From: Acaryochloris marina S15
Lineage (GTDB): Bacteria; Cyanobacteriota; Cyanobacteriia; Thermosynechococcales; Thermosynechococcaceae
Direction: 5' to 3'
Length of the DNA: 32,000 nt
Assembly (NCBI RefSeq): GCF_018336915.1
Contig: NZ_CP064921.1
Location: 30,001 to 62,000 of the forward strand
Shown: positions 7,640 through 27,026 of the stretch, piece by piece
Layout: every line of letters begins with the position of its first letter
How positions within the stretch are numbered: the first letter of the stretch is position 1
Position numbers and translations under genes: made by a program
The notes under the pieces: generated by a model
Databases searched by the model: none
The model's input: only the letters and a program-made list of their open reading frames with translations
Told to the model about the DNA's origin: nothing

Positions 7640-7687
7640 TCTGATGACAACAGAATTATTTGCTCACTCTATTTCGCTTGTGCCCTA

Positions 7688-10931: not shown

Positions 10932-12725
10932 TTACGGGGAAACCGAATTTTGAGATGATGTCGCGATTAGTTTTTGAGTGTCGGCAATGAGTCGATCGCC
11001 CCATCCATTTTTACGTTGATAGTCAGCTTGAGCCAATTTAGGGTCGATGCGAAGTGCAGCTTTAGCAAGTTGAGTGGCTTGAGCTTGATTCCCCTGCTTG
11101 GCATAAGCTGTGGCTAATGCAAGCTGTGGTTCTGCCAAAGTGCTGTCGAGACTGATGGCTTGCTTCAATTGGGTGATGGCCGCCTCAATATTATTCTGTT
11201 CATAGTACAGTAGCCCCAGATTGTTGAGGACCGGTATAACCTTGGGATTAACGTTAATGACTTTTCGGTAGTCGGCGATTGCCCGGGGATATTGCTTCAA
11301 CAGATGGTAAGACATCCCTCGATAGACGTAGGCTGACGTGAACTTAGAATCGATGGCAATGGCTTTGTTATAATCTGCGATCGCCGAATCATACTGCGTC
11401 AAAGAATGATTAGCGATTCCCCGATACACGTAAACTTGTGCTAAATCAGCTTCAATCCGACGGACTTTATGGAAATTCTTGAGTTCTTTGTCGAGAGCTT
11501 GTCTACCATCAGGATCATCAATATTGAGCCACTTACGTCCGGCCTCAAGGAGCAACTTAGCTGCATCCGCCGATTTTCCGGTTTGGATAGCTTCTGTAAT
11601 ATTAGGAGCATATTCTGCTACCCGTTCTTGACTGGCTTTAGTGCTTGCTTTCTTGACCTTGTTTCCTTCTTCAAGGGCTTTTTGGTACCGCACGATTGCC
11701 TGATCATAGTCCGCGATTGCTTGAGGAAACTGTTGTGCTGCTAGGTGTGAAGTCCCTCGACTATTGTAGGCATAGGTATAATCAGGGTTGAGTGCAATGG
11801 CTCGATCAAAATCTGAGATCGCCTGGGGATACTGCTTTAGCGCAGCGTAGGCATTCCCCCGATTAAAATAGGCTTCTGCATAATCAGGATTAAGTGCAAT
11901 GGCTTGATCAAAATCCGAGATCGCAGCTTGATAATTACCTTTTTGAATTTTGTCGCCTGCTTGTAAAAACCAATCATCTGCCGTCAATGCCGTACTTGTC
12001 GGCTCCACCTTCTCCCCAGTGAACCCTAACTCAGGACTCACGGTAGCCGCCAATCCCAAGAAGGTATGAATCGGAATCCCCAAATTGAAGCCCGTCTTCA
12101 CGTAGACCGTTTCAGTTTTTTGCTCCTGTTGTTGAGCATCGGCACGGCCATGGATGCCAATGAGCTTCCCCTCACTATTGAGTACTGCGCCGCCACTCAT
12201 TCCTGGCAAGGTATTGTTGCTGTAGACCAACGCATAGCCATCAGCTAACGGGCGTTTTGAATTGGCCGTAATCTCACCTTTAGAAAATGTCCAGATTGAT
12301 TCGGTAATTGCGGCAGTAGGCAGAGGGAAGCCAGACACATAGATCGAAGCCCCGACTTTTGCAGAGTTAGAGTCCCCTAATTTCGCGACGGGATATTTTT
12401 TTGAGCTGGTAAACTCCACGAGGGCTAAATCCACATTCGGCAATTTCTTCACATCGCTGTAGTTCAATGGATGCTGCTGCTGGTCAGCGGTGATGATGCC
12501 ATATTCATCTGGAGTTGCCACCACATGAGCCGCAGTCAACACAGTGTAAATGTTCCCTCGCTGCTTGATAATCACCCCAGACCCTGAATTTTGGCCCTCG
12601 ATCTGAACAGTGACGGCTTCCGCGATCTCGCTCACTTCAGTAGAGTTCAAAGCTTGAGCTGTTTGAAATGGTGCTGCCACAATTGCGGCTACACCTAATG
12701 GAAGCAAATACGAGGGAGTTATCAT
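10932..12725 (-). CDS. secreted trypsin-like (chymotrypsin-fold) serine protease fused to TPR repeats
   Basis: Signal peptide MITPSYLLPLGVAAIVAAPFQTAQA. Triad contexts are TAAHVV (His), NVDLALVEF (Asp) and LPGMSGGAVL (Ser). The C-terminal half has repeated 34-aa TPR units (AISDFDQAIALNPDYAEAYFNRGNAY...) with a Lys/Glu-rich insert of about 75 aa. Confidence 0.85.
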   Translation of the reverse strand: MITPSYLLPLGVAAIVAAPFQTAQALNSTEVSEIAEAVTVQIEGQNSGSGVIIKQRGNIYTVLTAAHVVATPDEYGIITADQQQHPLNYSDVKKLPNVDLALVEFTSSKKYPVAKLGDSNSAKVGASIYVSGFPLPTAAITESIWTFSKGEITANSKRPLADGYALVYSNNTLPGMSGGAVLNSEGKLIGIHGRADAQQQEQKTETVYVKTGFNLGIPIHTFLGLAATVSPELGFTGEKVEPTSTALTADDWFLQAGDKIQKGNYQAAISDFDQAIALNPDYAEAYFNRGNAYAALKQYPQAISDFDRAIALNPDYTYAYNSRGTSHLAAQQFPQAIADYDQAIVRYQKALEEGNKVKKASTKASQERVAEYAPNITEAIQTGKSADAAKLLLEAGRKWLNIDDPDGRQALDKELKNFHKVRRIEADLAQVYVYRGIANHSLTQYDSAIADYNKAIAIDSKFTSAYVYRGMSYHLLKQYPRAIADYRKVINVNPKVIPVLNNLGLLYYEQNNIEAAITQLKQAISLDSTLAEPQLALATAYAKQGNQAQATQLAKAALRIDPKLAQADYQRKNGWGDRLIADTQKLIATSSQNSVSP

Positions 12726-12790
12726 GAGCGTTTATACCTATATTAATTATTAATTGTGATTTAGAGCAAAGAGATAGATCTATTGCAGTA

Positions 12791-13281
12791 GGGGTTGAGC
12801 CGAGGTACGAGTAAAAAGATGCAATATGCTTCCAGAACCTAGATATAGCAGTACTTTCAGCTATTCTCAACAACAGTAGAATAGTGGATACTTATCTACA
12901 TAGATAGCGCTTGGATTCTATGTGTAACATGGCTTTCATCAACTTTTTTAATGAACTGTACTCGTTGTTGATGCGATCCCAAGATAGCTTTTGATTGCCT
13001 CTATTATCGTTAACGTGCTCAGATTGAATCTTATAAGTGGTAGGATGTCACCTACATCAAAATCGCTGAAGTTCCCTCAAAGTAAATCTTTCACTAATTC
13101 CAGTAGTGATCAGGGTGTACGAGTTTTGATGATTTACCTACACGAAATGCTGTATATCTATTTCGTCTGAAAACCCTGTAACTACGTTGCGATTGTCCTG
13201 GTTGAGAATAGATGAACATATTTGAATATATAGGTTCTGGAACCATTTTTCATCTTTTTACTCGTACCTCGGCTCAACCCC
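12791..13281. mobile_element. non-autonomous MITE-like element, 491 bp, long terminal inverted repeats
   Basis: GGGGTTGAGCCGAGGTACGAGTAAAAAGATG (12791..12821) is the perfect reverse complement of 13251..13281 (31 bp). The IR continues imperfectly to about 50 bp and includes TTCCAGAACCT (12830..12840) against 13232..13242. There is no credible ORF inside and no clear target duplication. Confidence 0.8.
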
Positions 13282-13467
13282 TTCAGGGTTAATTTGAAAA
13301 GCCATACATTGTAGATAAAAATCTACGGCATAGAGGGCTAATTTTTTCCGAAATTCTTGCTGAGTATGTTCTGTATCCAATTGCGGATGGATATGTTTTT
13401 GAACGCTTACCCAAGTTTTAGAGGTCAAGGGCACTGGGAAACTAAAGGTGGGAATTGTAGATTTCAT
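13258..13467 (-). pseudogene. DUF1822-family protein, N-terminal about 62 codons only (truncated at the MITE)
   Basis: From ATG 13467, MKSTIPTFSFPVPLTSKTW...QQEFRKKLALYAVDFYLQCMAFQINPE resembles the conserved N-terminus of cyanobacterial DUF1822 proteins (recalled, not searched). Native sequence ends at 13282, and the frame stops 8 codons into the MITE. Only 65 bp lie between the MITE and the protease gene, so the gene body is missing. Confidence 0.6.
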
Positions 13468-13517
13468 AGGATACAGAGGGAATAAATTACAAGTAGGTTG
13501 AGAGAAGATGAGTGACT

Positions 13518-14258
13518 CTAAAGATATCGTCTGAAATAGGGTAATAATTTTCTTAATTTCAGTTGAAAGAAACAGGAAAGATTTCGAATTGTGATCCCTG
13601 TTTGAGTTGATAATTCTGTCCAAGTTTTACCCTGAATATGGTGAGCAATCGCTAGGTATTGAAAGGTGATTTCGGGGTAGTTATTTATAGAATAGGTAGA
13701 GAGTAATTGCTCAGGGTCGTTCTCTAGAAACAACCGCAGATTTTCATAATCTTCAGTCTGTGAAGTTTCAATACCTATATTAGGAGCTATATATTCTAAA
13801 ACTTGTGGGTCATAGTAGAGTGTGAGCTGCAAATTTTGCTCATTGATCACTTCTAGAAATTTAAAGCGAAGTATAGAATTTGCCCAAGCCATCACTGTTC
13901 TATTAGGTCGATACAATTCAAGCTTTTTACAGATATAAATCCAGGTTTTCTGTTTGACTTCGTTGTATAAGTCTTCAAACATAGGAGGTGAATAGTAGTG
14001 AGCATATCTCCTCAAGCGAGAAAATCGCTCTGATTGCTCGATTAGCATGATTAACCGAGTCAGTCTCTCCTGTTTAGCTACTGATTTTGAAGGATGTGTA
14101 CGAGCCTTCAAGACTAGTTCTAGTAACTGCCGTTCTAGGACATCTTCATGACTTCGCCCTGTTAATTGTAAAAGTTGGGCGAAGGCTTGCTGTTGAGGTA
14201 TCGATCCTTGCAAATGGCTGTGAGCTTGCAACAGTAATTCCAGCAGTGCTTGATCCAT
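13518..14258 (-). CDS. sigma-70-like protein (cyanobacterial family usually paired with DUF1822)
   Basis: Region-2-like FEDLYNEVKQKTWIYICKKLELYRPNRTVMAWANSILRFKFLEVINE. Region-4-like HTH YLAIAHHIQGKTWTELSTQTGITIRNLSCFFQLKLRKLLPYFRRYL. Confidence 0.7.
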   Translation of the reverse strand: MDQALLELLLQAHSHLQGSIPQQQAFAQLLQLTGRSHEDVLERQLLELVLKARTHPSKSVAKQERLTRLIMLIEQSERFSRLRRYAHYYSPPMFEDLYNEVKQKTWIYICKKLELYRPNRTVMAWANSILRFKFLEVINEQNLQLTLYYDPQVLEYIAPNIGIETSQTEDYENLRLFLENDPEQLLSTYSINNYPEITFQYLAIAHHIQGKTWTELSTQTGITIRNLSCFFQLKLRKLLPYFRRYL

Positions 14259-14365
14259 TGGGATAGTGGTTTTCAGATTTTAATTAGAGGCTTGAGCACG
14301 ATACTTATGCAATGGGGCTGAGCTAGATTTCATCTGCATATAGATTCTGTCCAAATGCTGTTCAC

Positions 14366-14907
14366 TTAGGCTGCAACAATTGGTATTAAAGGGATTAGAG
14401 GCATCACCTTCTTTCTTGATTTCTGTCTAGGTTTCATCTTTTTAGAGGGGTACTTTGAACGCTGTTTCTTCACAACTCGTGGATAATATCGGTTGGCTCT
14501 TTCCGGTAACTCTTCATCAAGTAGTTCACTCATCAGCCATGCAACTTCATGTTCAAACTGCTCATTCAACAGTCCCTGAAACTTGCGGACAGCTCTACAA
14601 ATCACTTTGACACTGGCTGTGAATCCTATCTTCAAAGGTGAAATTTCAGCTTCAGCTGCTGCCTGTGACATTAATTGACGCACAACCCAATGCCCGATCA
14701 GTAAACCGTAGACTTCCTGGATCACATCTCGGGGATTTTCAGAACGCACTTCGACTTTTCGTTCTACCAGATGAGTTTTGAATTCATCGATGTTCACCTC
14801 TTCTTCCCAACGCTGATGAACATCCCTAGCTAACAAGGTTGCAGGAAATGACACATCATCAAATAGGTCAGTGATCAGCCGATAATTTTTGGGCTTCTTC
14901 GTCGAAA
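14366..14907 (-). pseudogene. IS4-family (DDE_Tnp_1) transposase, C-terminal fragment
   Basis: The frame stays open upstream of the ORF-track start to 14907 (FSTKKPKNYRLITDLFDDVSFPATLLARDVHQRWEEEVNIDEFKTHL...). The N-terminal two-thirds of the transposase is absent, and homology ends at the 138-bp IR element. Confidence 0.8.
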
Positions 14908-15045
14908 ATGTCAGTACTGAGTATCCAAGATGTTAATTGAGAATTTTAGGAAAATTAAGTTCTTGAAATAGTCAATTTCTCAGAAAAATCTTATTCAATA
15001 GTCAATAATACTAAGAATATCGATCTTAGATACTCAGTCCTGACA
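14908..15045. repeat. 138-bp element bounded by 23-bp inverted repeats (mini-MITE or internally deleted IS)
   Basis: TGTCAGTACTGAGTATCCAAGAT (14908..14930) matches the reverse complement of 15023..15045 (TGTCAGGACTGAGTATCTAAGAT) at 21/23. The AT-rich interior has no ORF. Confidence 0.7.
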
Positions 15046-15064: not shown

Positions 15065-16360
15065 TCATGAGATGCCCCCTTGAGGATATGACTCTGATTC
15101 AATTTCAGACAACAGAGATTCAGAGGGAGATTCGAGGGAAGTCATTGTTGCCAGCATCTGTTGTATGTCCATGCCAGTAGATTGCTGAAATTGTTCTAGA
15201 AAAGCGGCCAGTTTAGTAGCAGTGGCACCTCTCTGGGCATCAATCACAGTAATATTCTGGACATTAACCTCTGGCACACTCTCCGCCATCAGCTTAGTCA
15301 AAATATGGAGCTGCTGAAACATGAAAATGTCTTGTGCCGCCGCTCCTGCTGCTTGCCAAGATTGCCCTAATTGGCGAGTGCCAATCGCTTGGGCTTTGCC
15401 TTCTTCAATAATCTGAGCTGCTTTACCTTTAGCAGTTGCGATCGCAACCTCACAATCCGCCTCTGCTGGCGCAATTACATCGGCCTGGAGCTGCTGTTTT
15501 ACTTGGTGAATTCGCTCCGTTTCTACCGCTGCCTCTGCTTCGACGCGGGCCACCTGGATGCCTACCACAGACTCAACCTCCTCAATCGCTGCCACCCGCT
15601 TGCTTAAAGCATCACGCACTCGCTTTTGGGCATCAGCTTTAGCAATTTCTTCATCTCGTTGCAGCTGCCGTAAGGCAGTACGGCGCAGATTTGCAGAATC
15701 AAGAACTTGAGACTCTGCCGTGGCCTTTGCTTCGGCAATCCGCGCATCTCGAATCAGTTCTGCCTGTTGCTGGCGGCCTAAAGAATCTAGATAGCTGACC
15801 TCATCGGCAATGGTTTGGATCTGTAAACTATCGAGTAATAATCCCAACTTTTCTAGATCCGCTTCAGCTTCTTCTAATAGGCTCTTTGCAAAGGCAATCT
15901 GGTCAGAGTTTGCCTGCTCAGGGGTTAGGCTCGCTACGACTCCACGTAAATTCCCTTCCAGGGTTTCTTTGGCAAGCTGCTCAATCTCTTGGCGTTTTTT
16001 GCCCAAAAGGCGCTCAATAGCGTTATGAATGGTGGGTTCTGTTCCAGCAATTTTAATATTGGCGACTCCAGTCACAGTCAATGGAATGCCGCCCTTAGAA
16101 TAAGCCCCGGTCACCTGGAGGTCGATGATCATATTAGTTAGGTCCATGCGGAAACTCTGCTCTAACAGAGGCATCTGCAAACTGCTGCCCCCTTTCACTA
16201 AGCGATAGCCCTTTCTTTGACCATTGGCGAGCTGAGTATGAGGCCCCGCAAAGATTAACACTTCGCTGGGTTGACAAATGCAGTAGAAATTCTTGGTGAC
16301 ACTCCAGCCTGCAGCCAAGCTAAGGCTGCTCAGACCAAGCAAGAAGGTGATCAGTTCCAT
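15065..16360 (-). CDS. flotillin-like SPFH (band 7) domain protein, paralogue 2
   Basis: N-terminal membrane hairpin, SPFH core (YSKGGIPLTVTGVANIKI...NAIERLLGKKRQEIEQLAKETLEGNLRGVVASLTPEQ), and a long Ala/Glu/Gln-rich coiled-coil tail. The start ATG lies 2 nt after the upstream gene's TAA. Confidence 0.9.
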   Translation of the reverse strand: MELITFLLGLSSLSLAAGWSVTKNFYCICQPSEVLIFAGPHTQLANGQRKGYRLVKGGSSLQMPLLEQSFRMDLTNMIIDLQVTGAYSKGGIPLTVTGVANIKIAGTEPTIHNAIERLLGKKRQEIEQLAKETLEGNLRGVVASLTPEQANSDQIAFAKSLLEEAEADLEKLGLLLDSLQIQTIADEVSYLDSLGRQQQAELIRDARIAEAKATAESQVLDSANLRRTALRQLQRDEEIAKADAQKRVRDALSKRVAAIEEVESVVGIQVARVEAEAAVETERIHQVKQQLQADVIAPAEADCEVAIATAKGKAAQIIEEGKAQAIGTRQLGQSWQAAGAAAQDIFMFQQLHILTKLMAESVPEVNVQNITVIDAQRGATATKLAAFLEQFQQSTGMDIQQMLATMTSLESPSESLLSEIESESYPQGGIS

Positions 16361-16362
16361 AA

Positions 16363-17769
16363 TTATGCTCCTTGTTGAGGCAAAGGGTGGGTAAGAGACT
16401 GCGGCCCATGGGTCTGGGTCAAGGTACCTACGATGTCAATGCCCAAAGTCTGGTGTAGGCTATCAAGAAATTGGTGGACCACTTGGGGGTAAACCCTCAG
16501 CAAGCTAGCCACGGCCTCACCATCGCCGTTATCCACCACCTTGACCTGGTGCAGATGAAGTCGTTCAGGAATTTGGACTGCTTCCCGCAACACAGTTTCA
16601 ATTTGCTGGATCAAAAACACTTGAGAGGCATCGGTACCAATGTCTTGCCACACTTCAGCAAGCATGTCATTGACCCGGGCTGCCGCTCGGGCATTTTCTG
16701 CCAAAATCGCTGCATCACCTTGTTCCCGTAGTTCGGCTGCTTGCTGCTGGGCTTGAGCCGGTAGGACTTGGTCAGCCTGCAACCGCAGCCGCTCTACGTC
16801 AGCCCGCAGTTTCTGCAAAATTTGCTCTACTTTAGCCCGCCGCTCATTGGTTGCGGCCACAGTAATTTCTTCTTCAGATCGGGCCTGGCGCTCCAATTTA
16901 GCTTTAATTTTGCGGAGTTGATTTTCTTGCTCTAAAACTACGGTTCGATCTTGGGTTTGGGCAACTGCCGCCTGTTCTTGGCATTCCGCCTCTATCTGTT
17001 CTGCGGTCGTGAGTGCATCGGATTCTGCCACCTCAGCATCCCGCAAGATCATGGCAATCCGCTGTCGCCCCAGCGAACTGAGATAGTCCACATCATCGGC
17101 CACGCTTTGAATTTTGAGAATATCGAGATGTAGACCCAACGTTCTCAGTTCTCGACTGACATCCGAGGCGATGCGTTCAGCAAACTGGAGGCGATCCTCA
17201 TTCACCTGTTCAGGGGTCAAGGTTGCCACCACGCCCCGCAGATATCCGGCTAGGGTTTCCTGAGCCACCCTAATAATTTCAGTGCGTTTGTGACCTAGAA
17301 AGCGTTCAATGGCGTTGCCAACCACCCGCGAATCGCTCGAAATTTTGATATTGGCGATCGCTTGAATATGCAGGGGAATACCGCCCTTAGAATAGGCGTT
17401 ATGGACTTCCACCGGTACTGCCATCGTCGTTACATCCATCCGCTTAACAGTTTCTACAATCGGAATTCGAATGGCTCGGCCCCCTGTCAATACCCGATAC
17501 CCTAGCTTTTGACCATTGGGGGTCTTCCACTTGCGTCCTGAGAGAATAACCACTTCATTCGGTTTGCAAATGACCAAAAAAGCTTTTAAGAACCAGATGC
17601 CGACCAAGCTGCCTAAGACAGTTACGGTCAGGGGCAAGCCAACACTCCATAGGTTAGGAGACGAAGGTCCTTTAACAGAGGACTCAATCTCTTGGGAGGA
17701 AGTCGTCTTTTCTGTTGACTGGGCCAAGATGGCATCCAATCTTTGGGACAAGATGAGTTGCTGATTCAT
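16363..17769 (-). CDS. flotillin-like SPFH (band 7) domain protein, paralogue 1
   Basis: Same architecture as paralogue 2 (YSKGGIPLHIQAIANIKI...NAIERFLGHKRTEIIRVAQETLAGYLRGVVATLTPEQ) with a coiled-coil tail. The two are collinear and clearly paralogous across the SPFH core. Confidence 0.9.
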   Translation of the reverse strand: MNQQLILSQRLDAILAQSTEKTTSSQEIESSVKGPSSPNLWSVGLPLTVTVLGSLVGIWFLKAFLVICKPNEVVILSGRKWKTPNGQKLGYRVLTGGRAIRIPIVETVKRMDVTTMAVPVEVHNAYSKGGIPLHIQAIANIKISSDSRVVGNAIERFLGHKRTEIIRVAQETLAGYLRGVVATLTPEQVNEDRLQFAERIASDVSRELRTLGLHLDILKIQSVADDVDYLSSLGRQRIAMILRDAEVAESDALTTAEQIEAECQEQAAVAQTQDRTVVLEQENQLRKIKAKLERQARSEEEITVAATNERRAKVEQILQKLRADVERLRLQADQVLPAQAQQQAAELREQGDAAILAENARAAARVNDMLAEVWQDIGTDASQVFLIQQIETVLREAVQIPERLHLHQVKVVDNGDGEAVASLLRVYPQVVHQFLDSLHQTLGIDIVGTLTQTHGPQSLTHPLPQQGA

Positions 17770-17824: not shown

Positions 17825-18211
17825 CTATATGTAATCTCTTAGAAGCGGGTCAATACCAAGACCCATACATTCTTGTTGGGCCAAGATATACAAACTATCC
17901 TCAGAGATGACCAGGACATAATTGTCTTCAACAGCTACAACGAGAACCGAATTGCCCCGTTCAAAATCCTCCGAATCGTAGGCAAAGGCCCGCAGATTGA
18001 GGACAGAATCACCGATATTGATTCGTACCTTTCCTGGGTGGCCATGTCCAAACGGAATGTTAACCACTCCGTACAAGCCGATTAGCTGCTCCGATGGCAT
18101 GAAACTGTCAACAGCTTGATTGCCTCGATGACACCAAATCAAGCCGATAATCCCTCCCCCGCAACTAATACCAATCGCAATCGCAAGACAGATCATTACA
18201 AACATGCGCAT
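17825..18211 (-). CDS. NfeD-like membrane protein (SPFH operon partner)
   Basis: N-terminal TM segment (FVMICLAIAIGISCGGGIIGLIW). The C-terminal OB-like segment LIGLYGVVNIPFGHGHPGKVRINIGDSVLNLRAFAYDSEDFERGNSVLVVAVEDNYVLV fits the NfeD C-terminal pattern. It lies directly upstream of the flotillin genes. Confidence 0.6.
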   Translation of the reverse strand: MRMFVMICLAIAIGISCGGGIIGLIWCHRGNQAVDSFMPSEQLIGLYGVVNIPFGHGHPGKVRINIGDSVLNLRAFAYDSEDFERGNSVLVVAVEDNYVLVISEDSLYILAQQECMGLGIDPLLRDYI

Positions 18212-18240: not shown

Positions 18241-18465
18241 TCAAAAATATCCATGGGATAGTTGATTTTGCCCAGGTCGAGCTAAATCCTCTAGATGTTC
18301 AGGACCTCCTCCGCTACGAGACCTTTGAGGTTCTACCTTTAATCGTTTAGATTCAGATTGATAGGCATCAACTGTGTTGACTTGAGGCTGGCCTTTAAGT
18401 GGTGAAAAGAGTGCAATGCAACTCATACCAAGAAGTAACAAGCATGGGAAATATAGATGCCTCAC
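18241..18465 (-). CDS. small hypothetical protein with a signal-peptide-like N-terminus
   Basis: GTG start preceded by GAGG 7 nt upstream. MRHLYFPCLLLLGMSCIALFSPL is hydrophobic and the rest is polar. Same strand as the NfeD gene and 29 bp upstream of it. No family recognised. Confidence 0.35.
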   Translation of the reverse strand: MRHLYFPCLLLLGMSCIALFSPLKGQPQVNTVDAYQSESKRLKVEPQRSRSGGGPEHLEDLARPGQNQLSHGYF

Positions 18466-18640
18466 AGTTAAACCTCAGGTCATTTTCTATAAACTTGCCA
18501 GAGCATTCAGAAAGCTGTGATTTCAATTGATCTCTGCTGGTAGTATCACAGGTGAAGAAGTAAGCCATCTGGATTAATTTGAAACAAAAAGGTATCGGGT
18601 AGATAGCTAGGATGCTTGATAATTTTGGGATGTGTTTCAT
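18395..18640 (-). CDS. small hypothetical ORF with a strong Shine-Dalgarno sequence
   Basis: ATG 18640 is preceded by TAGGAGGTAGCTC, placing GGAGG 6 nt upstream. It overlaps the next small ORF by 71 nt in another frame. No family recognised. Confidence 0.3.
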   Translation of the reverse strand: MKHIPKLSSILAIYPIPFCFKLIQMAYFFTCDTTSRDQLKSQLSECSGKFIENDLRFNCEASIFPMLVTSWYELHCTLFTT

Positions 18641-18884
18641 GAGCTACCTCCTAAAATTTTTCCTGTTTTGAAAGCAGCGACACATGTTTCAGGGTCAGTT
18701 GCCTTGCTATGAGAGCAAATTAAGACCATCACTCTCAGAAGTAGTAGATTGAGTAGATCACTTCTGCGATGAACGTCAGGGCAAACACCGAAATCGCCTG
18801 TGGTTCAGTAAGATAGAAGTCAGCCTACAGATGTCATCAATAAATCGACATAATACGATTCATAATGCTTATTATTTGTATTCT

Positions 18885-18957
18885 TGATGATATTATTTGC
18901 GTAACTTCTTCATAAAATCATCATAATATCCACAAGTCAAGCCTAAAATATCATCAT
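18885..18957. promoter_or_regulatory. candidate operator: inverted and direct TCATCA-type repeats overlapping the NACHT gene start
   Basis: TGATGATAT (18885..18893) is the reverse complement of ATATCATCA (18948..18956). ATCATCAT recurs at 18917..18924 and 18950..18957. The region is AT-rich, so significance is modest. Confidence 0.3.
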
Positions 18958-21298
18958 GGCATCATCCAATCGAGGCAAACCCGCTCTGCAAGCATCTGCA
19001 AAAGGAGTAGAGCAAGCCCAGCAAATCTTCAAACGGAAGGGCTTGACCCGACAGGGTATGGCCCAAACCTTGGGAATTGATCGCTCTGTGGTCGGCAAAT
19101 TTTTGAGGGGGGAAAAGATCTGGTCCCAGAAGTTTGAAGAGATCTGTGATTTTTTAGAGATTCCTTGGCAAGATATTGCTGAGGGTATGGCTCCTACACC
19201 TCAGTTTTCTCAGGGGTCACCGGAAGTACGAAAAGCCCGCCAACAACTACGAGATTATATTGAGCAACGCTGTGGTGCTATACGCATTCTCGGCATGGAT
19301 AAGGCTCAGCCTGTAGAAGCAATCTATACCCAATTGCGGGTTTTACAGGGAGATAGTATCTATCCCTCGGCGGGGAATGATACCCAAACCATCACAAAGT
19401 TGACAGAAAGTCTTAATGGCAAAGAGGCCATTGAAAAATACTCCCATCTTCATATTTTAGGACTGCCTGGATCGGGTAAAACTACATTTCTGAAATACCT
19501 GGCTCTGCAATGCGTTCAGGGAAAACTGATGCCAGAAGTAGTGCCTATTTTTGTGGCTTTGCGAGACATTGCCCAACCCTTGAAACAGCAGGATCTTTTG
19601 ACTTGTATCAGTGAGGTTTATGGGAAAACTTGTGGCCTAGATCCGGCTCTGCTCCGGCAGCTTTTTGATCAGGGGGCCGTTTTATTGTTACTGGATGGCG
19701 AAGACGAAATTCCTGTGGCTCAGGCTCAGACCCTGGCTTTAACCGAGTTTGACCTGTTTTACAAAAATCGAGTTGTGATTACCTGTCGAACAGCAGCTAG
19801 TCGTCAGGTTTATGAACAATTTACCCAAGCCACGATTCAGCAATTTACGGACAACCAGATTGAAGAATTTGCCCAGCATTGGTTTCGGGCTACTCCTGAT
19901 CAGGCGACCTCTTTCATGGCTTGGCTAAACACAAACAAGGCTGACTTCAGAGATAGCTTCGATTTAGCCAGTACCCCCTTGTTATTGACCCTTCTATGTA
20001 TTGCTTTTGAATCCGCTCGCGAAAAACCGCAAAAGCGGCATCAAATTTACGAGATGGCGTTTGAACATATTCTTGGAGATTTGAACTATGGCCATATGCT
20101 GCCTGCAGCCACGGTCATCCCTGCCCAGACCTATCAAGAGAAAATGACGTTATTGAAGACTATAGCTAGAGCAGCCTTTGACTATGATGACAAAGTTTTT
20201 CCGGCTTCGCGAGCATTTCTAAGCCATGCGAGTATCGATCTTGAGATACAGGGCGGTTTATCACCCACTGAGTTTTTGCGGGAGTTGGAGGCGAGCTACG
20301 GCATCATCACTCAGGATTCATGGAATCACTATCGATTTTCGCATCTGTCGTTTCATGAATATTTTGTGGCTTTAGCCCTCCTTGATGAAATCAACACAGA
20401 TACCGAGGCTGCATTCTCAGTCCTTTTCAATGAAACCCATCTGTTTAATTCTGCTTGGTATGAAGTGTTTTGGTTTATTGCTCAAATGCTTCCCCTTCAA
20501 AAAGCAGAAGGTTTTTTGGAGACGTTCAAAACTAGACTTAGCGACTATTTACAGGGTCAGGATCCACAAGCCTTGGAGCAGGTTCAGGAGGGAGGTGAGA
20601 TCGCAACCCGTATCATCCATCTTTTCAAAACTCACAGGTCCAGCCCAACCTCAGCCCGCCAAAGTTTAGATACCCATCCTATTCAATCTGCCATCACCAT
20701 CCGTGCCTTTTGCTCAGACTATTATTATCGATTTGACCCGGCACGTCGGATCAGTCGAGTCTTTGATGTGGGCTATCAATTCAGCCATGACTTAGTGTTA
20801 GCTCACTGCTTCAAGTGCAATCTTGGGCCAGTGCCAAAACGCAGTCTCAAGGCTGGCAAAAATTTTGATTTTGCCGATGCTCTAGTACATGTCTGGCATC
20901 AACAAGAACTGCAACAACAAAATCAGACGCTTGAGACCATCGATGAGGTCCGAGCCTTATTCTTTGACTATGTGCTCCAACATCCAGACCAATTTTCTCC
21001 AGTCTGTAGGCAGTACTTTTCAGGGGAGGTCCGTCGACTTGAAGAGCTGGCAAAACTCTCTAAGCGCCAAGAAATTATTGAAAAAAGCAAATTAGTGGCT
21101 GATATTTCTAACCCGGATCAAGAAGAACATCCCTTTCTCGGATCTAAAAAATTTCGGTTTCCTACCCTCGCCTACGATCATCCTGAAGCCGTCATCACCC
21201 TGAGTAACTATTACTACGGTTGTACCTTATTGTGTGATTGTTTTTCTGCTGAGCAAGCCTTGCCTCTTCAGCAGAAAATCTTACAAGGGTTGTTCTGA
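18956..21298 (+). CDS. STAND NTPase: N-terminal HTH + NACHT domain + unassigned C-terminal region
   Basis: XRE-like HTH GLTRQGMAQTLGIDRSVVGKFLRGEK (aa 29-54). Pre-NACHT RILGMDKAQPVEAIYTQLRVL. Walker A GLPGSGKT (aa 169-176). Walker B LLLLDGEDE (aa 243-251). Also VVITCRTAA, STPLLLTLLC and FSHLSFHEYFVALAL. From about aa 490 to 780 I see no WD40, TPR or LRR periodicity. Confidence 0.9.
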   Translation: MASSNRGKPALQASAKGVEQAQQIFKRKGLTRQGMAQTLGIDRSVVGKFLRGEKIWSQKFEEICDFLEIPWQDIAEGMAPTPQFSQGSPEVRKARQQLRDYIEQRCGAIRILGMDKAQPVEAIYTQLRVLQGDSIYPSAGNDTQTITKLTESLNGKEAIEKYSHLHILGLPGSGKTTFLKYLALQCVQGKLMPEVVPIFVALRDIAQPLKQQDLLTCISEVYGKTCGLDPALLRQLFDQGAVLLLLDGEDEIPVAQAQTLALTEFDLFYKNRVVITCRTAASRQVYEQFTQATIQQFTDNQIEEFAQHWFRATPDQATSFMAWLNTNKADFRDSFDLASTPLLLTLLCIAFESAREKPQKRHQIYEMAFEHILGDLNYGHMLPAATVIPAQTYQEKMTLLKTIARAAFDYDDKVFPASRAFLSHASIDLEIQGGLSPTEFLRELEASYGIITQDSWNHYRFSHLSFHEYFVALALLDEINTDTEAAFSVLFNETHLFNSAWYEVFWFIAQMLPLQKAEGFLETFKTRLSDYLQGQDPQALEQVQEGGEIATRIIHLFKTHRSSPTSARQSLDTHPIQSAITIRAFCSDYYYRFDPARRISRVFDVGYQFSHDLVLAHCFKCNLGPVPKRSLKAGKNFDFADALVHVWHQQELQQQNQTLETIDEVRALFFDYVLQHPDQFSPVCRQYFSGEVRRLEELAKLSKRQEIIEKSKLVADISNPDQEEHPFLGSKKFRFPTLAYDHPEAVITLSNYYYGCTLLCDCFSAEQALPLQQKILQGLF

Positions 21299-21477: not shown

Positions 21478-21876
21478 ATGGCTAAAAAAACAGCAGCCGC
21501 AAAGAAAAAGACAGCCGCAAAGAAACAAGATATTCAACCCTTGGTCGGGAAAGAACTACTCAGTAAGCTCAAGGACTTATCTCACCTATCAAAGCGGGAA
21601 AAAGCGAAAGAGTGTGGCTATGTAGTCGGCAAGCAAGTTAACCTGAGTGGTTTTATGAATGCCATTTTGGAAGCCAAGGGCATTTCACTAGATGGTGATG
21701 CCAATAGCGACGGTAGAGGTCGAGAGGCAACCTATCGGATCAAAGTTCATCAGAATGGGCAGATGGTTATCGGGTCTACCTACACCGAAAGGATGGGTTT
21801 ACAGACTGGCGATGAGTTTGAAATCAAGCTCGGTTATAAGCACATTCATTTAACTCAATTAACGGATGATGAGTAG
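21478..21876 (+). CDS. cyAbrB-type transcriptional regulator (C-terminal AbrB/SpoVT domain)
   Basis: GRGREATYRIKVHQNGQMVIGSTYTERMGLQTGDEFEIKLGYKHIHL is the C-terminal swapped-hairpin domain typical of cyanobacterial AbrB-like regulators. The N-terminus is MAKKTAAAKKKTAAKK. Confidence 0.85.
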   Translation: MAKKTAAAKKKTAAKKQDIQPLVGKELLSKLKDLSHLSKREKAKECGYVVGKQVNLSGFMNAILEAKGISLDGDANSDGRGREATYRIKVHQNGQMVIGSTYTERMGLQTGDEFEIKLGYKHIHLTQLTDDE

Positions 21877-22327
21877 AACAGTATTGCTAAAAACCGTGAC
21901 TCAATTTCACTATAGGCACTAATTTTTCATATTAAGATTTGGATGTTTCAGAACAGTGGAACGAATTAGCTACGTGTAGATAAGGACCATTGACGTACCC
22001 TTAAATCACTCTTGCCTCATTCTCAATAAGCCCGATCTCCATGCCCCCTCCACCCAAATTCCACGAGTTTCCAGTACTTTCACCCCTTTAAGGGGTTAAG
22101 CCGACATACGCCTAATTTTTCTCACAGGATCGCCGAAAGCCAATATTGAAGAGAGTTTTAAGACTTCAAGCTATCAAGTATTTACACTCTTCAAACTAGG
22201 GTAACACTTTTGCTGAAAAGAAAAAGATTAGAAGTACTACTATGCAAGGGGCTTATGGATTTTTGAATTATACAAGAGCGTTATCCTGGCATACTAGAAC
22301 TTGAACCATACCCACTCTAATTACATC

Positions 22328-23813
22328 GGGCGTAAGCAAAGGATCGGGGATGCATGGCTCAAAGAAAAACGGGTCAAGGACAATAGATCCTGTACCCGAA
22401 CCAAAAAACTATCATGCCCCTACCATCGCAATTGCTAACCGTGCTAGCCCATGACGAATTTCTAGAACAAACTGAAGCACTCAAAGTATCAACCAGCCTG
22501 AGTCAGATGGTTTATATCGTTCTGCAAATGGGCTTGTTTCTAGCTCGCTGTCTTCTGGAGGATGAACTCTCAAGGCGCGCGAAAGCAGTATTTGTATGGC
22601 CTGTATGTACTACCTGCGGAACCCGCTTACATTCGAAGGGATGGGAATCTCGTCAGATGCAGACACTGGTAGGCACTATCTCTTGAAAGCGACGGGTGGG
22701 CCGTTGTCCCAAAGGATGTCCAGGCAGTCTGTTGACTCCCCTGGATCAAGCCATTGGGATTCCCCCCTATCAGCACAGCAGCGAAGAACTGGTGCGTCTG
22801 GGCTGCTTGTTGAGTCTGTTCATGCCCTATGAACTGGCCAGTTGGATGCTGGGTCAGTGGAGTGGTCTATCCGTGAGTCCATCCAGTTTGTGGAACTGGG
22901 TGCAATCCGTGGGTAACAAAGCTCAGCAGGAATTAGAAGCTCAACTCAACGCTCAATCATCAGGGACTCAGGCCCCTTGTGAAGCGATTTCAGAGATGTT
23001 ATCTGCTCTACCTTTGGCCATTGCCGCCGATGGTGTGATGGTCCCCTTTCGCCCCACCCCGAACTCACCCAAGGGAAAAATCCAGTGGCGAGAAGTCAAA
23101 GTCGCCATCTTAGCTCGCCTGGGAACACGGGTTACCCGAGCTAAAAAGGAGGTCCCCCAATTACTGCGTCGAAGACTGGTGGCAGTATTGGGCGATATCG
23201 ACCAGTTCATCCCTTTACTTCAACTCGAAGCTCACAAACAAGACTTTGAATCTGCTCCAAAAGTCATCTGGCTCAGTGATGGGGGACGAGGCTTCTGGCG
23301 AGTCTATCGCACCTTGTTCTCTCATTGTGCTGTGGCAGTCCTCGACTTTTTTCATTCAGCAGGCCATCTGGCACGAGCAACTAAAGCGATGTTTGGAGAT
23401 GCCCGCTCTGCTCAAGCCCAAGCCTGGTTCCGGCACTGGCGACACCAATTGCGACACGGGCAACACCTACTTGTATTACGGTCCTTGACGATATTGATTC
23501 ACTCACAACTGTTAACGGGAAAGTCTTTTTCAACGTTGCTCCAGGTGCAGGCTTATTTCCAACGCCATCATCACCACATCCGTTATCGGCACTTTGAACA
23601 GCAACAGATTCCTCTCGGGTCAGGAATGGTTGAAAGTGCATGCAAGTGGTTGATTCAGCAGCGCTTTAAGGGAGTTGGCATGCGCTGGAGTGAGGATGGT
23701 TTCAACCATTTACTGATCTTGAGAATTGCCTGGGTCAATGAACGGTTTGACTCCTTATTCCCAGAGGTGACCATTCCGAAAACTAAGGCATCCCCGATCC
23801 GCTAAATACGCCC
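22328..23813 (+). mobile_element. IS element copy 2 (tentatively ISKra4-like), 1486 bp
   Basis: Same sequence and orientation as 6100..7585. Its own perfect 9-bp target duplication is AATTACATC (22319..22327 and 23814..23822). Confidence 0.9.
22414..23805 (+). CDS. DDE transposase (ISKra4-like, tentative) with the same in-frame TGA
   Basis: ORFs 22414..22686 and 22696..23805 share one frame, separated by TGA 22684..22686. The protein is identical to copy 1 except T2P. Confidence 0.75.
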
Positions 23814-23996: not shown

Positions 23997-25306
23997 CTTA
24001 GGCGATTTCTGGGAAAGAACTCACGGGATTTTCGGTCACTTGATGCGATAGTAATGCATTGAATCTAACTCTGAGTATGCGTGAACAATTAACGTGGAAT
24101 CAAATTAAAGATCTGAAATTTGCCTCTTCAAAAATGACAGGAATCCGCCGTCGTGCTTTCCAGGCAGACATCGCCCTCAAATACTGTAACGGGAACCCCA
24201 ATCTCACAGAACTGATATTTGGTTGGGGTCGCAATACGGTGGCAACAGGTTTAGGCGAGAAGCGAACAGGGATGATTTGTGCGGGTGCTCAGTCCGGTTT
24301 CTGTGGTAAGAAACGTTGGGAAGACCTTCACCCAGAGGTCGCAACAGCCTTACGGGAACTCGCAGAAGCCCATAGCCAACAAGACCCTACCTTTTCCAGC
24401 TCCACTGCCTATACTCGCTTAACAGCAGCTGCCGCTATCGAACACCTGAGTGGACAAGGGTTTCCTCCCAAGTCTATCCCTGCAAAGAGTACGATGGCCG
24501 TCGTCTTGAATCGGTTAGGCTATCGACTCCGCCCCGTCCTCAAAGCTAAACCCCAAAAAAACTGCCGGAAACTGATGCCATCTTTGACAACCTCAAACAC
24601 AAAGACCAATACGACTCTGACAGCACGGTCAAACGGTTGAGTATTGATTGCAAAGCCACCGTTGAACTGGGGGAGTCTTCGCGTCGGGGCAAGACTCGAA
24701 CCCAAACGCAAGCTTGTGACCACGATATGGGGAGTGGGCCAAAATATATTCCCTGCGGCATCCTAGATGAGGACACCAATACGTTACACATCACCTTTGG
24801 TAATTCCCACAAAACGAGCGATTTTATGGTCGATAATCTCCAGGATTGGTGGAACACCCTTGCCCTCAACGAACAGCAAACCCTTCAGCTCATCCAGATC
24901 AAGTTGGATAACGGTCCTGAGAATAGTGGGGTACGCACTCAGTTCCTCAATCGACTTGTGACCTTTAGCGATCACATCGGCACCGCTATTCACTTGCTGT
25001 ACTATCCGCCCTATCACAGCAAGTACAACCCCATTGAACGATGTTGGGGGATTTTGGAGCAACACTGGAACGGAACTTTGTTAACCGATGTTGATACCCT
25101 GTTGGGATGGGCTAGAACCATGACTTGGAAGGGTAAGCATCCCGTTATAACTTTGACACAGAAGATTTATGAAACAGGGATTTCGTTGACTAAAAAAGCA
25201 ATGAAAGGGATTGAGAAACGATTGGAAAGAAATCCTCAATTACCCAAGTGGGACATCCTCATTAAGCCAATTTAGTCCGTGAGTTCTTTCCCAGAAATCG
25301 CCTTAG
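23997..25306 (+). mobile_element. ISAzo13-family insertion sequence (ends approximate)
   Basis: Perfect 27-bp IR: AGGCGATTTCTGGGAAAGAACTCACGG (24000..24026) against the reverse complement of 25277..25303, with 2-3 further partly matching bases outward. No target duplication recognised. Confidence 0.8.
24059..25275 (+). CDS. ISAzo13-family transposase, two frames joined by a -1 shift at A_AAA_AAC
   Basis: ORF 24059..24640 ends as ..VLKAKPQKNCRKL. Shifting -1 at the A7 run (24555..24561) gives KAKPQKKLPETDAIFDNLKHKDQYDSDSTVKRLSIDCKATVELGESSRRGKTR, which runs into ORF 24637..25275. KK(I/L)PETDAIF is a conserved ISAzo13 transposase motif (recalled). Confidence 0.85.
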
Positions 25307-25651: not shown

Positions 25652-27026
25652 GTTAGTGTCCCTATTTATTCGCCACGGTTTTTGAGGCGATCATGCTTGG
25701 CATGATCCCTACGAGAGACGAGAAAGAAAATCGCTAAACAGCTCTCCTCATTTGGGAAAGCACCAATTTCGTCAGCCTTGGTTCGGAATTTCCGGAACAG
25801 CCTTTCTAGCGCATTGGAAGTACGAATCAGCGAATGAAGGGATTCATCAAAATCATAGAAACTCAAGGTCAGGGCAAAATCTTTGATGAAGGTTCTAACA
25901 GCATCGGGTTCAAGGTCTGTCCATTTCTGTGCAAACACGAGCAACGTCACAATCGCTTCTTCCCAGTCTGGCGCTTTATAGATAGCATAGGCATCGTGTT
26001 TAATTTGTGAATATCGCAGCTTCTTTGCTTCAGAGTGGGAGAGTTCTTGTCCTTGAGCATCCAGGTGTGGCAATTGCTCATAGCCCAAATGCCGGAGCAT
26101 CGCTCGAACCTTGTGGGTAATGCATCGTTGATGTTGTGCGAGGGGAAACAGAGCGCGAATTACCTTAGGTAGTCCAGTGGTGCCATCACTGACAATCAGC
26201 TTCACCAAATGGGTTTGCAATCCTCGGTGCCGCAGGTGCTCAAAGAACAGTAGCCAGGCTGCCTCAGATTCTTGGACAGCCATTTCGTAATGAAGAACGG
26301 TTTGTGTCCCATCTGGCCATATCGCCATGGCCACTAAGATGACTCGGTCTTCCGCACGACGTAGCTTCCGGATATGTCCAGCTTGGTCTTCCCAAAAGTC
26401 TTCGGAGGCGCATTGAACACTCGCCCACACTCCATCAACAATCAGAATAAAAGGGGTTTTCTCAAGACGAGTTTGACGACTTTGGAGCATTTGCTTCTGA
26501 GCTTTGAGAGTAATCCGGTTAATGGCATTCACGGATAAAACTGCTCCCAGGATCTCATAGAGAGCTTCTTGCAAGTCTCGAAGCGATAAACCCATGACAT
26601 ACAAGCCCAGGCAAAACTCTAGAAGGCTACCGAGGGCTCGTTGGTAACGCTCTAGAATCTTCCACTCTCGGTCTGCATTCCCTTTCCGTAGTTTCGGGAC
26701 AGATAGTTGAGCAATCCTGCCGTACTGGGTATCAAGAACCCGCTGATAATAGCCTGAACGTCGAGGGCGAGTCCCTTGAAGCTCTGATAGATAAGCTTGG
26801 ACTTCTTCGTCTAGTGCTGACTCTACTGCTATCTGGGTAACTCGGTTAGCCTCAAGGCGCAGGGTTGCTTCTAAAGCTTTGTTAATAGAGGCATATGAAC
26901 TTTGAGACTGGATACGGATAATCTGCTGCTCACGTTGGGAAATGTTCATCAAGGAGTGCTCCGAATTCTCTATTATCAGAGCATTTCAGCTATTCCAGCT
27001 CATGGCGAATAAATCAAGACACTAAC
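25652..27026 (-). mobile_element. IS256-family insertion sequence, 1375 bp, nested in the ISL3 transposase gene
   Basis: IRs: GTTAGTGTCCCTATTTATTCGCCACGG (25652..25678) against GTTAGTGTCTTGATTTATTCGCCATGG, the complement of 27000..27026 (23/27). Perfect 8-bp target duplication CCGTTTTT (25644..25651 and 27027..27034). Confidence 0.9.
25666..26952 (-). CDS. IS256-family (Mutator-type) transposase
   Basis: 428-aa intact ORF. RPRRSGYYQRVLDTQYGRIAQLSVPKLRKG, LIVDGVWASV and ITHKVRAMLRH fit IS256-type transposases. Confidence 0.9.
   Translation of the reverse strand: MMNISQREQQIIRIQSQSSYASINKALEATLRLEANRVTQIAVESALDEEVQAYLSELQGTRPRRSGYYQRVLDTQYGRIAQLSVPKLRKGNADREWKILERYQRALGSLLEFCLGLYVMGLSLRDLQEALYEILGAVLSVNAINRITLKAQKQMLQSRQTRLEKTPFILIVDGVWASVQCASEDFWEDQAGHIRKLRRAEDRVILVAMAIWPDGTQTVLHYEMAVQESEAAWLLFFEHLRHRGLQTHLVKLIVSDGTTGLPKVIRALFPLAQHQRCITHKVRAMLRHLGYEQLPHLDAQGQELSHSEAKKLRYSQIKHDAYAIYKAPDWEEAIVTLLVFAQKWTDLEPDAVRTFIKDFALTLSFYDFDESLHSLIRTSNALERLFRKFRTKADEIGAFPNEESCLAIFFLVSRRDHAKHDRLKNRGE

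Follow-up and report, generated by a model that had tools for sequence, protein, structure and literature searches.

The 32,000-nucleotide stretch of Acaryochloris marina S15 analysed here (contig NZ_CP064921.1, positions 30,001 to 62,000; called the window below) carries a gene for a 780-aa protein with a helix-turn-helix (HTH) domain at its N-terminus, a NACHT nucleoside triphosphatase (NTPase) domain and a C-terminal module predicted to be all-alpha. This HTH–NACHT protein is a full-length relative of XssQ, an experimentally validated transcription activator of Synechocystis sp. PCC 6803, and is probably itself an XssQ-type regulator, driven by nucleoside triphosphate and binding a conserved array of short boxes at its own promoter. 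Its architecture and full-length XssQ homology, its intact NTPase motifs, a conserved cis-element in front of the gene and a set of recurrent neighbours were all observed directly. The regulator class has already been described with XssQ, and many cyanobacterial proteins share the architecture. What this analysis adds is that the orthogroup belongs to the XssQ family, that its operator-like leader is strongly conserved, that SPFH, transmembrane (TM) kinase, PF27765 and sigma-like genes recur in its neighbourhood, and that the C-terminal module has a confidently predicted fold for which no relative has been solved. The features of the gene and its leader are:

18956..21298, + strand: HTH–NACHT–NCH2-like STAND NTPase gene, 780 aa plus stop codon
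18998..19180, + strand: XRE/Cro-C1-type HTH domain, aa ~15-75, placed by Pfam HTH_3, a family profile and AlphaFold2 (AF2)
19451..19891, + strand: NACHT nucleotide-binding domain, placed by Pfam NACHT, with Walker A at 19460-19483 and Walker B at 19682-19708
19892..20395, + strand: helical domain 1 and winged-helix domain of the NACHT module, including STPLLLTLLC and FSHLSFHEYF, placed by structural alignment and conserved motifs
20396..21295, + strand: C-terminal all-alpha module, aa 481-780, a divergent form of the C-terminal module of the family
20708-20824, + strand: C-terminal core FCSDYYYRFDPARRIS / DLVLAHCFKCNL, the most conserved part of the protein
21161-21295, + strand: NCH2-resembling tail YYYGCTLLCDC…ILQGLF
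18884..18958, + strand: conserved leader and candidate operator, recognized by its near-invariance across orthologues
18912-18940, + strand: 29-nt motif ATAAAATCATCATAATATCCACAAGTCAA; core AAGTCAAGC at 18934-18942, + strand
18885, 18914, 18925 and 18947: leader boxes TGATGATATT, AAAATCATCA, AATATCCACA and AATATCATCA, the last overlapping the ATG
18802..18826, + strand: second conserved upstream block GGTTCAGTAAGATAGAAGTCAGCC, with an AAGTCA box at about -139

Domain architecture and homology to XssQ

The start codon of the gene is secure, because an in-frame stop codon precedes the ATG by 9 nt and orthologues share the N-terminus MASSNRGKP. The protein is 99.7% identical to a RefSeq 'helix-turn-helix domain-containing protein' encoded on the 394-kb plasmid pMB01 of Acaryochloris sp. 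'Moss Beach', where the local gene order around the gene is that of the window.

The central domain had been called a NACHT NTPase in an earlier note made from the sequence alone, and this call was confirmed. Pfam NACHT (PF05729) matched aa 166-312 with an E-value of 6.6e-15 and 55.8 bits against a curated cut-off of 26.7 bits, and every motif quoted in that note was found in its place: Walker A GLPGSGKT (aa 169-176), Walker B LLLLDGEDE (aa 243-251), STPLLLTLLC (aa 339-348) and FSHLSFHEYFVALAL (aa 461-475). Among 13 orthologues G169, P171, G172, G174, K175, D247, D250 and E251 are invariant. With Walker A of the form GxxGxGKT, Walker B of the form hhhhDGxDE and a match above the curated profile cut-off, the protein is a NACHT-clade STAND NTPase, and its NTPase domain is intact and predicted to be functional. 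A full-length AF2 model built from 88 homologues (predicted local distance difference test, pLDDT, 82.7; predicted template modelling score, pTM, 0.70) had its best PDB matches by Foldseek in NLRC4, NOD2 and NLRP3 (E 1e-11 to 1e-9 over ~550 columns). It predicts the succession of nucleotide-binding domain, helical domain 1, winged-helix domain (and helical domain 2) of animal NOD-like receptors (NLRs). The linker at aa 76-150 is poorly conserved and modelled with low confidence, its pLDDT falling below 50 in parts.

The XRE-like HTH domain named in the earlier note was weak on the single sequence, where HTH_3 stayed below cut-off (E 7e-4 to 1.2e-3), and clear at the level of the family. HTH_3 matched 17 of 26 family members individually, and the family profile of this region matched the XRE-type regulator 3tyr, HipB and the phage 434 repressor in the PDB. 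The N-terminal 75 residues form four to five short helices, modelled by AF2 within the domain at aa 15-27, 32-39, 43-50 and 57-66 (pLDDT ~90), with a putative recognition helix around RSVVGKFLRG (aa 43-52). An HTH on a NACHT protein had also been regarded as atypical, which does not hold. The cyanobacterial HTH–NACHT family gave more than 1,600 matches of this architecture, typically 750-790 aa long, in which HTH_3 and NACHT are accompanied by Pfam NCH2 ('NACHT C-terminal helical domain 2') at the very C-terminal end, and both HTH and NCH domains are listed among bacterial NACHT proteins by Kibby et al. The orthogroup of the window protein is small, with ~13 known members and three representatives at 50% identity.

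XssQ (Slr5058) is the STAND-type activator of the synechan (xss) gene cluster, and the HTH at its N-terminus led to its description as 'a new type of STAND protein'. Its knock-out abolishes synechan production and its over-expression boosts it, several xss genes were found to be activated by XssQ by RNA-seq and quantitative PCR, and in electrophoretic mobility shift assays (EMSA) it binds AAGTTxxAC boxes, single or tandem (Maeda et al. 2021, eLife; PMC8205485). By their titles and abstracts, later papers that mention XssQ concern synechan or biofilm. A tblastn search of plasmids with the window protein gave a match on pSYSM at 57969-59657, within a gene for a 783-aa 'NACHT domain-containing NTPase' between a sugar transferase gene and two response-regulator genes, which from its position in the sll5042-60 cluster is taken to be slr5058, i.e. 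xssQ. BLASTP aligned both proteins with 28% identity over 569 aa covering HTH and NACHT (E 6e-50), the HTH region of the window protein aligning with XssQ aa 2-71. XssQ has its NACHT domain at aa 197-349 and NCH2 at aa 686-775, and its C-terminus matched the C-terminal profile of the orthogroup (hhalign, 99.1%, E 9e-19). From the BLASTP and C-terminal profile matches together, the window protein is therefore a full-length paralogue of an experimentally validated activator. It is a paralogue and not an orthologue, because no response-regulator, histidine-kinase, glycosyl-transferase or sulfotransferase genes adjoin the HTH–NACHT gene in the window or at any orthologue locus. The transcriptional output that had been read from the HTH in the earlier note is thus supported by a homologue for which activation was demonstrated by knock-out, over-expression, RNA-seq and EMSA.

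The C-terminal region had been left unassigned, and a Pfam search of aa 480-780 indeed gave no significant match; NCH2 (PF22727) reached only E 0.1, aligning aa 748-775 with profile positions 60-89. Profile comparison, however, maps it to the NCH2-bearing module of the large family. The profile of the last 310 residues of the orthogroup matched that of 84 NCH2-bearing relatives (hhalign, 97.6%, E 3e-12, 261 columns), and motifs common to both could be found by eye (W.EVF, RAF..D…D..R, L…A.CF and a terminal YY….LL..CL…R..I…L). An exhaustive search with the C-terminal profile returned 1,729 representative clusters, of which only 3 came from the orthogroup itself, and in full-length proteins the module always stood at the C-terminal end. 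The region thus reads as a homologous, but divergent, form of the family module. The statement that it lacks WD40, TPR or LRR periodicity stood: no repeat periodicity was found, and folded alone the module is predicted to be a compact all-alpha domain (pLDDT 90.4, pTM 0.89), with no PDB relative by fold (best E 0.5, template modelling score <=0.22) or by sequence profile. Its core at aa 576-680 (FCxDYxYxFDxxRRIS … DLVLAHCFKCNL) shows an identity of 0.55 to the deepest orthologues, compared with 0.52 for the NTPase domain. Conservation of this kind would fit a fixed cellular signal rather than an arms race.

The conserved leader and the proposed switch

For comparison of the flanking DNA we used 21 orthologue loci from about a dozen lineages and 14 paralogue loci. 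A scan of genome contigs with a single-sequence query found none, and the loci were recovered by an alignment-based scan. The leader hardly varies among orthologues with 45-97% protein identity, and even where protein identity is 45-59% the final ~50 nt before the ATG (ATAAAATCATCATAATATCCACAAGTCAAGCCTAAAATATCATCATG) stay almost unchanged. Each of 14 orthologue loci has a single copy of the 29-nt motif in degenerate form, at the corresponding position, and the paralogue loci have none. Exact TGATGATWTT has three matches in the window, all within 72 bp of leader (one forward, two reverse). Across orthologues AAwATCAyCA boxes stand at -126, -115, -42, -31 and -9, with an inverted box at -71; spacing within each cluster is ~11 bp or a multiple of it, which puts all boxes of one cluster on a single helix face. 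The AAGTCAAG core is found at -22 (18934-18941) and near -139 (18818-18825). AGTCAAG occurs on the coding strand within 260 nt upstream in 18 of the 21 orthologue loci (expected ~0.03 per locus), and was found on the opposite strand in one of the seven paralogue loci that have a set start coordinate. Orthologues of the Pseudanabaenaceae have an array of their own (TCCTAAGTAAAGA / TCCTAAGTCAAGC / TCCTAATTAAAGA, 17-18 nt apart), and their HTH recognition helix differs as well; similar AAGTnAAG repeats are present at a sister-subfamily locus (L035). Outside the leader, no further copy of its 28-nt sequence and no strong box was found in the window, save a chance-level sequence inside two insertion sequence (IS) copies.

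The AAGT core of the leader recalls the XssQ box AAGTTxxAC, and the array is a candidate binding site of the protein's own HTH, which would imply autoregulation. An RNA element was considered as well: the leader had no Rfam match at E-values up to 1 and its folding was close to that of shuffled sequences (z -1.06), which favours an element that is linear or acts at the DNA level. A scan of the region for the sigma-70 promoter consensus gave one weak minus-strand match, fewer than in shuffled sequences.

How such a switch might work can be outlined by analogy with XssQ, MalT and AfsR, with binding to the boxes, identity of the regulon and the signal all being predictions. In the ADP-bound resting state the C-terminal module would keep the protein closed. 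An input signal would open it, allowing nucleotide exchange and oligomerisation, and the oligomer would bring together several HTH domains that could occupy an array of short boxes on one DNA face. The best candidate site would be the array upstream of its own start, i.e. AAGTCAAG at -22 and near -139 together with the phased AAwATCAyCA boxes. Occupation of this array might then lead to autoregulation and also to control of the divergent operon, as the control region is shared.

Neighbouring genes and possible targets

Adjoining genes of the window that bear on the question of targets are:

17825..18211, - strand: NfeD2-like small membrane protein with one N-terminal TM segment, first clear gene of the divergent operon (Pfam NfeD E 4.6e-4, below cut-off)
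15065..17769, - strand: two tandem flotillin-like SPFH2 genes, 16363-17769 and 15065-16360 (Band_7 E 1e-16 to 1e-21; FloT-like by NCBIfam)
13518..14258, - strand: orf246, beyond the flotillin operon, gene for a divergent ECF-type (extracytoplasmic function) sigma-70 factor (TIGR02989 E 8e-7; RefSeq 'sigma-70 family RNA polymerase sigma factor')
21478..21876, + strand: AbrB-like regulator gene (PF14250 E 8e-33)

The divergent NfeD and tandem flotillin genes reported in the earlier note are thus present, with a weak NfeD match, and they correspond to the NfeD2 plus two SPFH2 operon that is standard and widespread in cyanobacteria (PMC2636767). The intergenic region of 315 bp given there had to be revised: it took an 81-aa open reading frame (ORF) at 18395-18640 for a gene, and this ORF is not conserved as coding sequence, to judge from its protein conservation of 88% against 92% for the surrounding DNA and its being mostly missing in the 94% orthologue locus L002. 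The real gap to NfeD is 744 bp, or ~530 bp if a RefSeq hypothetical protein of 61 aa just upstream of NfeD on the same strand (18241-18465, - strand; 11286-11471 in L039) is real. This hypothetical, which contains the AAGTCAAC copy at 18376, may be the true first gene of the operon or spurious. The spacer holds lineage-specific insertions, among them ~214 nt at 18562-18775 relative to L002. It also includes a non-coding block of 83 nt (18406-18488) that is present in L001, L002 and L024 and 83% identical in the 71-72% orthologues without flotillins (L022, L023, L029 and L030). In these relatives the block lies ~20 nt upstream of the leader block, and in the window a ~310-nt insertion separates the two; the block had no Rfam match and showed no covariation or compensatory changes.

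Genes found divergently upstream of the HTH–NACHT gene, with protein identity to the window protein in brackets, are:

Window, L001 (97%) and pMB01 (99.7%): NfeD – flotillin – flotillin – (IS fragment) – sigma-70-like gene
L002 (94%): NfeD – flotillin – flotillin – TM Ser/Thr kinase – PF27765 protein
L024 (82%): NfeD – flotillin, then contig end
L025 (79%), L021 and L026 (73%), L027, L028 and L031 (59%): kinase – PF27765 directly
L022, L023, L029 and L030 (71-72%) and L032 (42%): none of NfeD, SPFH, kinase–PF27765 or sigma-like gene
L003 (45%): small sigma-region-2-like ORF
L004 and L006 (41-43%): small sigma-like ORF – HflK-like SPFH – STAND – kinase
L005 (42%): small sigma-like ORF – SPFH – kinase – PF27765 – STAND – kinase

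The earlier note had proposed a conserved linkage with flotillin and NfeD, and this could be upheld in part. In the Acaryochloris-type set, NfeD and flotillin genes stand only beside orthologues of at least 82% identity (NfeD being kept in L001, L002 and L024) and are absent at 79% or less. SPFH genes in a wider sense, however, occupy the divergent slot in three deep lineages: the window with L001, L002 and L024; L004-L006 of the Pseudanabaenaceae; and L035. These genes belong to three SPFH subfamilies (flotillin-like, HflK-like and, in L035, a short Band_7 protein), and the adjoining HTH–NACHT proteins are 29-42% identical. L035 was found in a search that started from the PF27765 protein, in which one of three sampled loci had an HTH–NACHT–NCH2 gene, divergent from Band_7 – x – kinase – PF27765. 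Its NACHT gene, of a sister subfamily, is broken up over at least three frames by frameshifts (3534-5640), either as a pseudogene or through long-read frameshift errors; the adjoining Band_7 gene also appears to be cut short at its start. SPFH or PF27765 genes were found at none of the 14 paralogue loci. The flotillin link is therefore lineage-restricted in its exact form and recurs at the level of the SPFH superfamily.

The most persistent neighbour of HTH–NACHT orthologues is a pair of genes, one for a Ser/Thr kinase whose catalytic domain is followed by two TM helices and one for a soluble PF27765 ('UCP032817-like', glycine-rich-domain) protein. The pair is tight and occurs in many cyanobacteria with or without a NACHT gene (L002 3539-5523; L021 7822-9779; L005 6173-8312; also in L035-L037). 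A sigma-like partner may belong to the system too. Distant relatives of orf246 of 100-130 aa that resemble its region 2 lie directly divergent from the NACHT gene in the three deepest lineages (L003 9164-9547, L004 9384-9686, L005 9384-9776 and L006 2810-3190; small-ORF profile match E 4e-5). These small ORFs were also considered as NfeD, which was rejected (BLASTP E >0.02). Compared with the PDB, orf246 gave no useful match.

It is plausible, by analogy with XssQ, that the protein also controls its divergent operon, flotillin/NfeD here and kinase–PF27765 ancestrally: XssQ sets a precedent, the neighbours recur, and inverted AAGTCAAC boxes are turned towards the divergent gene. On pSYSM an AAGTTxxAC box lies at -48 in the 164-bp intergenic region between xssQ and its divergent target xssP, so the geometry of a regulator diverging from its target, as suggested in the earlier note, has a precedent with a box in the shared region. 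In the window, inverted AAGTCAAC stands at 18376, ~164 nt from the NfeD start, as it does in all four NfeD-linked loci. Extending this, the ancestral divergent operon would have consisted of the membrane-anchored Ser/Thr kinase and PF27765 protein, often preceded by a gene for an SPFH scaffold, with NfeD and two flotillins holding the slot instead in this Acaryochloris lineage. The kinase would stand in for the XssS/XssR phosphorelay that feeds XssQ. A conserved cyanobacterial pathway from membrane to transcription might be envisaged, in which a membrane-anchored Hanks-type kinase, possibly located in SPFH microdomains, replaces XssS/XssR as input, the invariant Cys/His-rich C-terminal core could serve as a redox- or metal-sensing or partner-binding surface, and the activator binds the phased AAGT-core array and controls both the divergent membrane operon and itself. 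We put this complete pathway forward only tentatively and consider it rather unlikely in all its parts. The recurrent neighbours and the conserved motif hint at an unstudied set of target genes and possibly a new regulon.

Several points weigh against the proposed binding of the leader and control of the neighbours. The box consensus AAGTCAAGC differs from the AAGTTxxAC of XssQ, and the ATCATCA boxes could equally be promoter or translation-start elements. Inverted AAGTCAAC sits in a generally conserved stretch and inside the small ORF called by RefSeq. Neither near the NfeD start nor upstream of AbrB were high-scoring boxes found; the strong conserved boxes cluster at the start of the HTH–NACHT gene itself. 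The kinase–PF27765 pair lacks any NACHT gene in L036 and L037, and at L022, L023, L029, L030, L003 and L032 neither SPFH genes nor the kinase pair stand next to the HTH–NACHT gene. The plasmid region around the locus is moreover rich in IS elements, which makes part of the gene order seen today accidental.

Alternatively, the protein might be an autoregulated XssQ-like regulator with its real targets elsewhere in the genome, its SPFH and kinase neighbours being due to inherited order and chance. Most of the synteny falls inside one family-level clade, where gene order persists by descent, several lineages lack all of these partners, the kinase pair occurs alone, and strong boxes in the window stand only at the gene's own start. 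On the other hand, three different SPFH subfamilies came to stand in the same slot beside HTH–NACHT proteins of 29-42% identity, one case being found independently through PF27765, and the 14 paralogue loci lack such neighbours throughout. By a rough, post hoc estimate that uses an estimated copy number, chance adjacency in three lineages would be unlikely for a family of few copies. We regard neighbours without any meaning as a rather unlikely explanation.

The model of the earlier note, a dedicated regulator of the NfeD–flotillin operon that forms one membrane-remodelling unit with cyAbrB as co-regulator, appears unlikely. It draws on the divergent NfeD and flotillin arrangement in the window, L001, L002, L024 and pMB01, on non-orthologous SPFH genes in the same slot in Pseudanabaenaceae and L035, on the regulation of a divergent neighbour by XssQ, and on the inverted AAGTCAAC shared by the NfeD-linked loci. 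Orthologues of 59-79% identity, however, include those that face the kinase operon directly without flotillin or NfeD, the flotillin cassette of L002 lies like an insertion between the NACHT gene and the kinase pair, and the intergenic region has been enlarged by lineage-specific insertions. The operon is widespread in cyanobacteria (PMC2636767) compared with the few known orthogroup members, so it does not generally depend on such a regulator. As for cyAbrB, it does follow the gene in the window and on pMB01, but it is absent from L001, 97% identical, and from all other orthologue loci. Homology to L001 ends ~30 bp past the stop codon of the HTH–NACHT gene. The adjacency of AbrB is most likely incidental, a strain-specific neighbour outside the system, because it is missing from L001 and the other loci and lies in a mobile-element context.

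The window is rich in transposase genes. Two direct IS copies of 1,487 bp that are 99.9% identical (6099-7585 and 22327-23813), each with a 369-aa ORF starting with GTG and without Pfam match, bracket ~14.7 kb with genes for a major facilitator superfamily transporter, an IS240 transposase, a trypsin–TPR protein and the sigma-like factor, as well as the flotillin operon, the NACHT gene and AbrB. The bracketed segment resembles a composite transposon. Relative to L001, the stretch from the flotillin operon to the sigma-like gene holds an insertion of ~600 nt with a transposase fragment (14313-14908, ORF 14366-14854). At 24059-25275 frameshifting, either programmed or degenerative, divides an ISAZ013-family transposase between overlapping ORFs of 193 and 212 aa, and a Mutator-family transposase follows at 25666-26952. 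Two genes past the sigma-like gene lies a 597-aa fusion of a trypsin-like peptidase with TPR (10932-12725, - strand). Trypsin–TPR fusions are common in 'conflict systems' of multicellular bacteria. Among the orthologue loci, L003, from a complete chromosome of a metagenome-assembled genome, has a TPR–CHAT protein, a XisH/XisI pair and another CHAT protease encoded on the flanks of its NACHT gene (4036-6819, 6980-7722, 12618-14021). The SPFH/kinase cluster of the Pseudanabaenaceae loci L004 (5700-8185) and L005 (3632-6132) has at its far end a further STAND NTPase, of smaller size (NB-ARC/NACHT-like, ~455 aa), that shows translational coupling to another Ser/Thr kinase.

An anti-phage bacterial NLR of the bNACHT type, with a C-terminus sensing a phage component and the HTH as adaptor or effector that, for example, shuts down or rewires transcription in infection, is in our view very unlikely. 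Kibby et al. found that bacterial NACHT proteins protect against phage and counted transcription-regulatory domains among 'adaptor' effectors; the gene is plasmid-borne in an IS-rich region with the trypsin–TPR protein nearby, and the CHAT and TPR–CHAT neighbours of L003 and the extra STAND–kinase pair of L004 and L005 point in the same direction, as do weak partial matches to NCBIfam DS8_antiphage and EruA and to PADLOC PDC-S60. A defence role is less likely because the sensor is conserved, unlike the hypervariable SNaCT of bNACHT01 (Kibby et al.), because there is no toxic effector domain, the HTH being the sole extra domain, and because the defence models match only the NACHT core (DS8_antiphage 25 versus 790 bits, EruA 18 versus 1000 bits, PDC-S60 only aa 149-319). 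XssQ, the one member of the family to have been characterised, activates polysaccharide genes in a housekeeping-type role (PMC8205485), and synteny and promoter region are conserved in the orthogroup as for a vertically inherited regulator. PADLOC gave no match for the flotillin, NfeD and AbrB proteins.

Significance and comparison with known systems

To our knowledge, the current discussion of bacterial NLR-like proteins deals with them almost exclusively as anti-phage sensors. XssQ demonstrates that one cyanobacterial branch works as a transcription activator, with one known regulon (synechan) for a family of well over a thousand members. The locus described here adds a second well-defined case, a slowly evolving orthogroup with an unusually conserved candidate operator and recurrent membrane-associated neighbours. 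The earlier note had considered its combination of genes undescribed, which does not apply to the regulator class; for the link to SPFH and kinase genes we found no description in the literature, nor any paper linking SPFH or NfeD with NACHT. If the link is true, STAND switches would be tied to membrane-microdomain biology, and bacterial flotillin operons would gain a regulator, which has so far been largely wanting. If it is false, the gene would be one more XssQ paralogue on an IS-rich plasmid.

Among other STAND regulators, MalT of E. coli and the AfsR/SARP-type proteins of Streptomyces combine a nucleotide-driven oligomerisation switch with a DNA-binding domain, and their multimers bind arrays of repeated sites. 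They belong to other STAND clades (MalT-type and NB-ARC, not NACHT); the DNA-binding domain is LuxR-type and C-terminal in MalT, SARP/OmpR-type and N-terminal in AfsR, and the sensors are TPR or Sup-type repeats. The protein described here would resemble them in switch logic, but differs in clade, DNA-binding domain and sensor. Anti-phage proteins of the bNACHT01 type (Kibby et al.) likewise have a NACHT core followed by a short C-terminal domain without repeats. They lack an HTH and have a rapidly diversifying SNaCT, and a defence phenotype was shown for them only, whereas the window protein has an HTH and a conserved C-terminus.

The cyanobacterial HTH–NACHT–NCH2 family (Kibby et al. 2022/2023; PF22727) has the same domain order as the window protein and full-length homology to it. 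This family is very large, with many paralogues in filamentous cyanobacteria, while the orthogroup is small and slowly evolving. Typical members carry variable low-complexity linkers of the LDLSRSL type, whereas the C-terminus of the window protein is conserved and free of low complexity. Synteny and leader are conserved in the orthogroup and not at the paralogue loci of the family.

Closest among characterised proteins is XssQ. Both are plasmid-borne and of the same length class (783 versus 780 aa), both start with an HTH, continue with NACHT and close with a helical module, whose end is NCH2 in XssQ and an NCH2-like tail in the window protein, they can be aligned end to end, and each is divergent from its neighbour with a short AAGT-core box in the shared intergenic region. 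They differ in the box itself (candidate AAGTCAAG(C) versus AAGTTxxAC) and in the tail, which in the window protein is too divergent for Pfam (E 0.1) and in XssQ is matched as NCH2 at aa 686-775. The invariant Cys/His-rich motifs in the middle of the C-terminal module (FCxDYxYxFD, DLVLAHCFKCNL) are specific to the window protein and distinguish it from XssQ. Finally, XssQ is encoded with the XssS/XssR two-component system and polysaccharide genes, whereas the window gene stands beside SPFH/NfeD genes and, in relatives, beside those for the Ser/Thr kinase and PF27765 protein.

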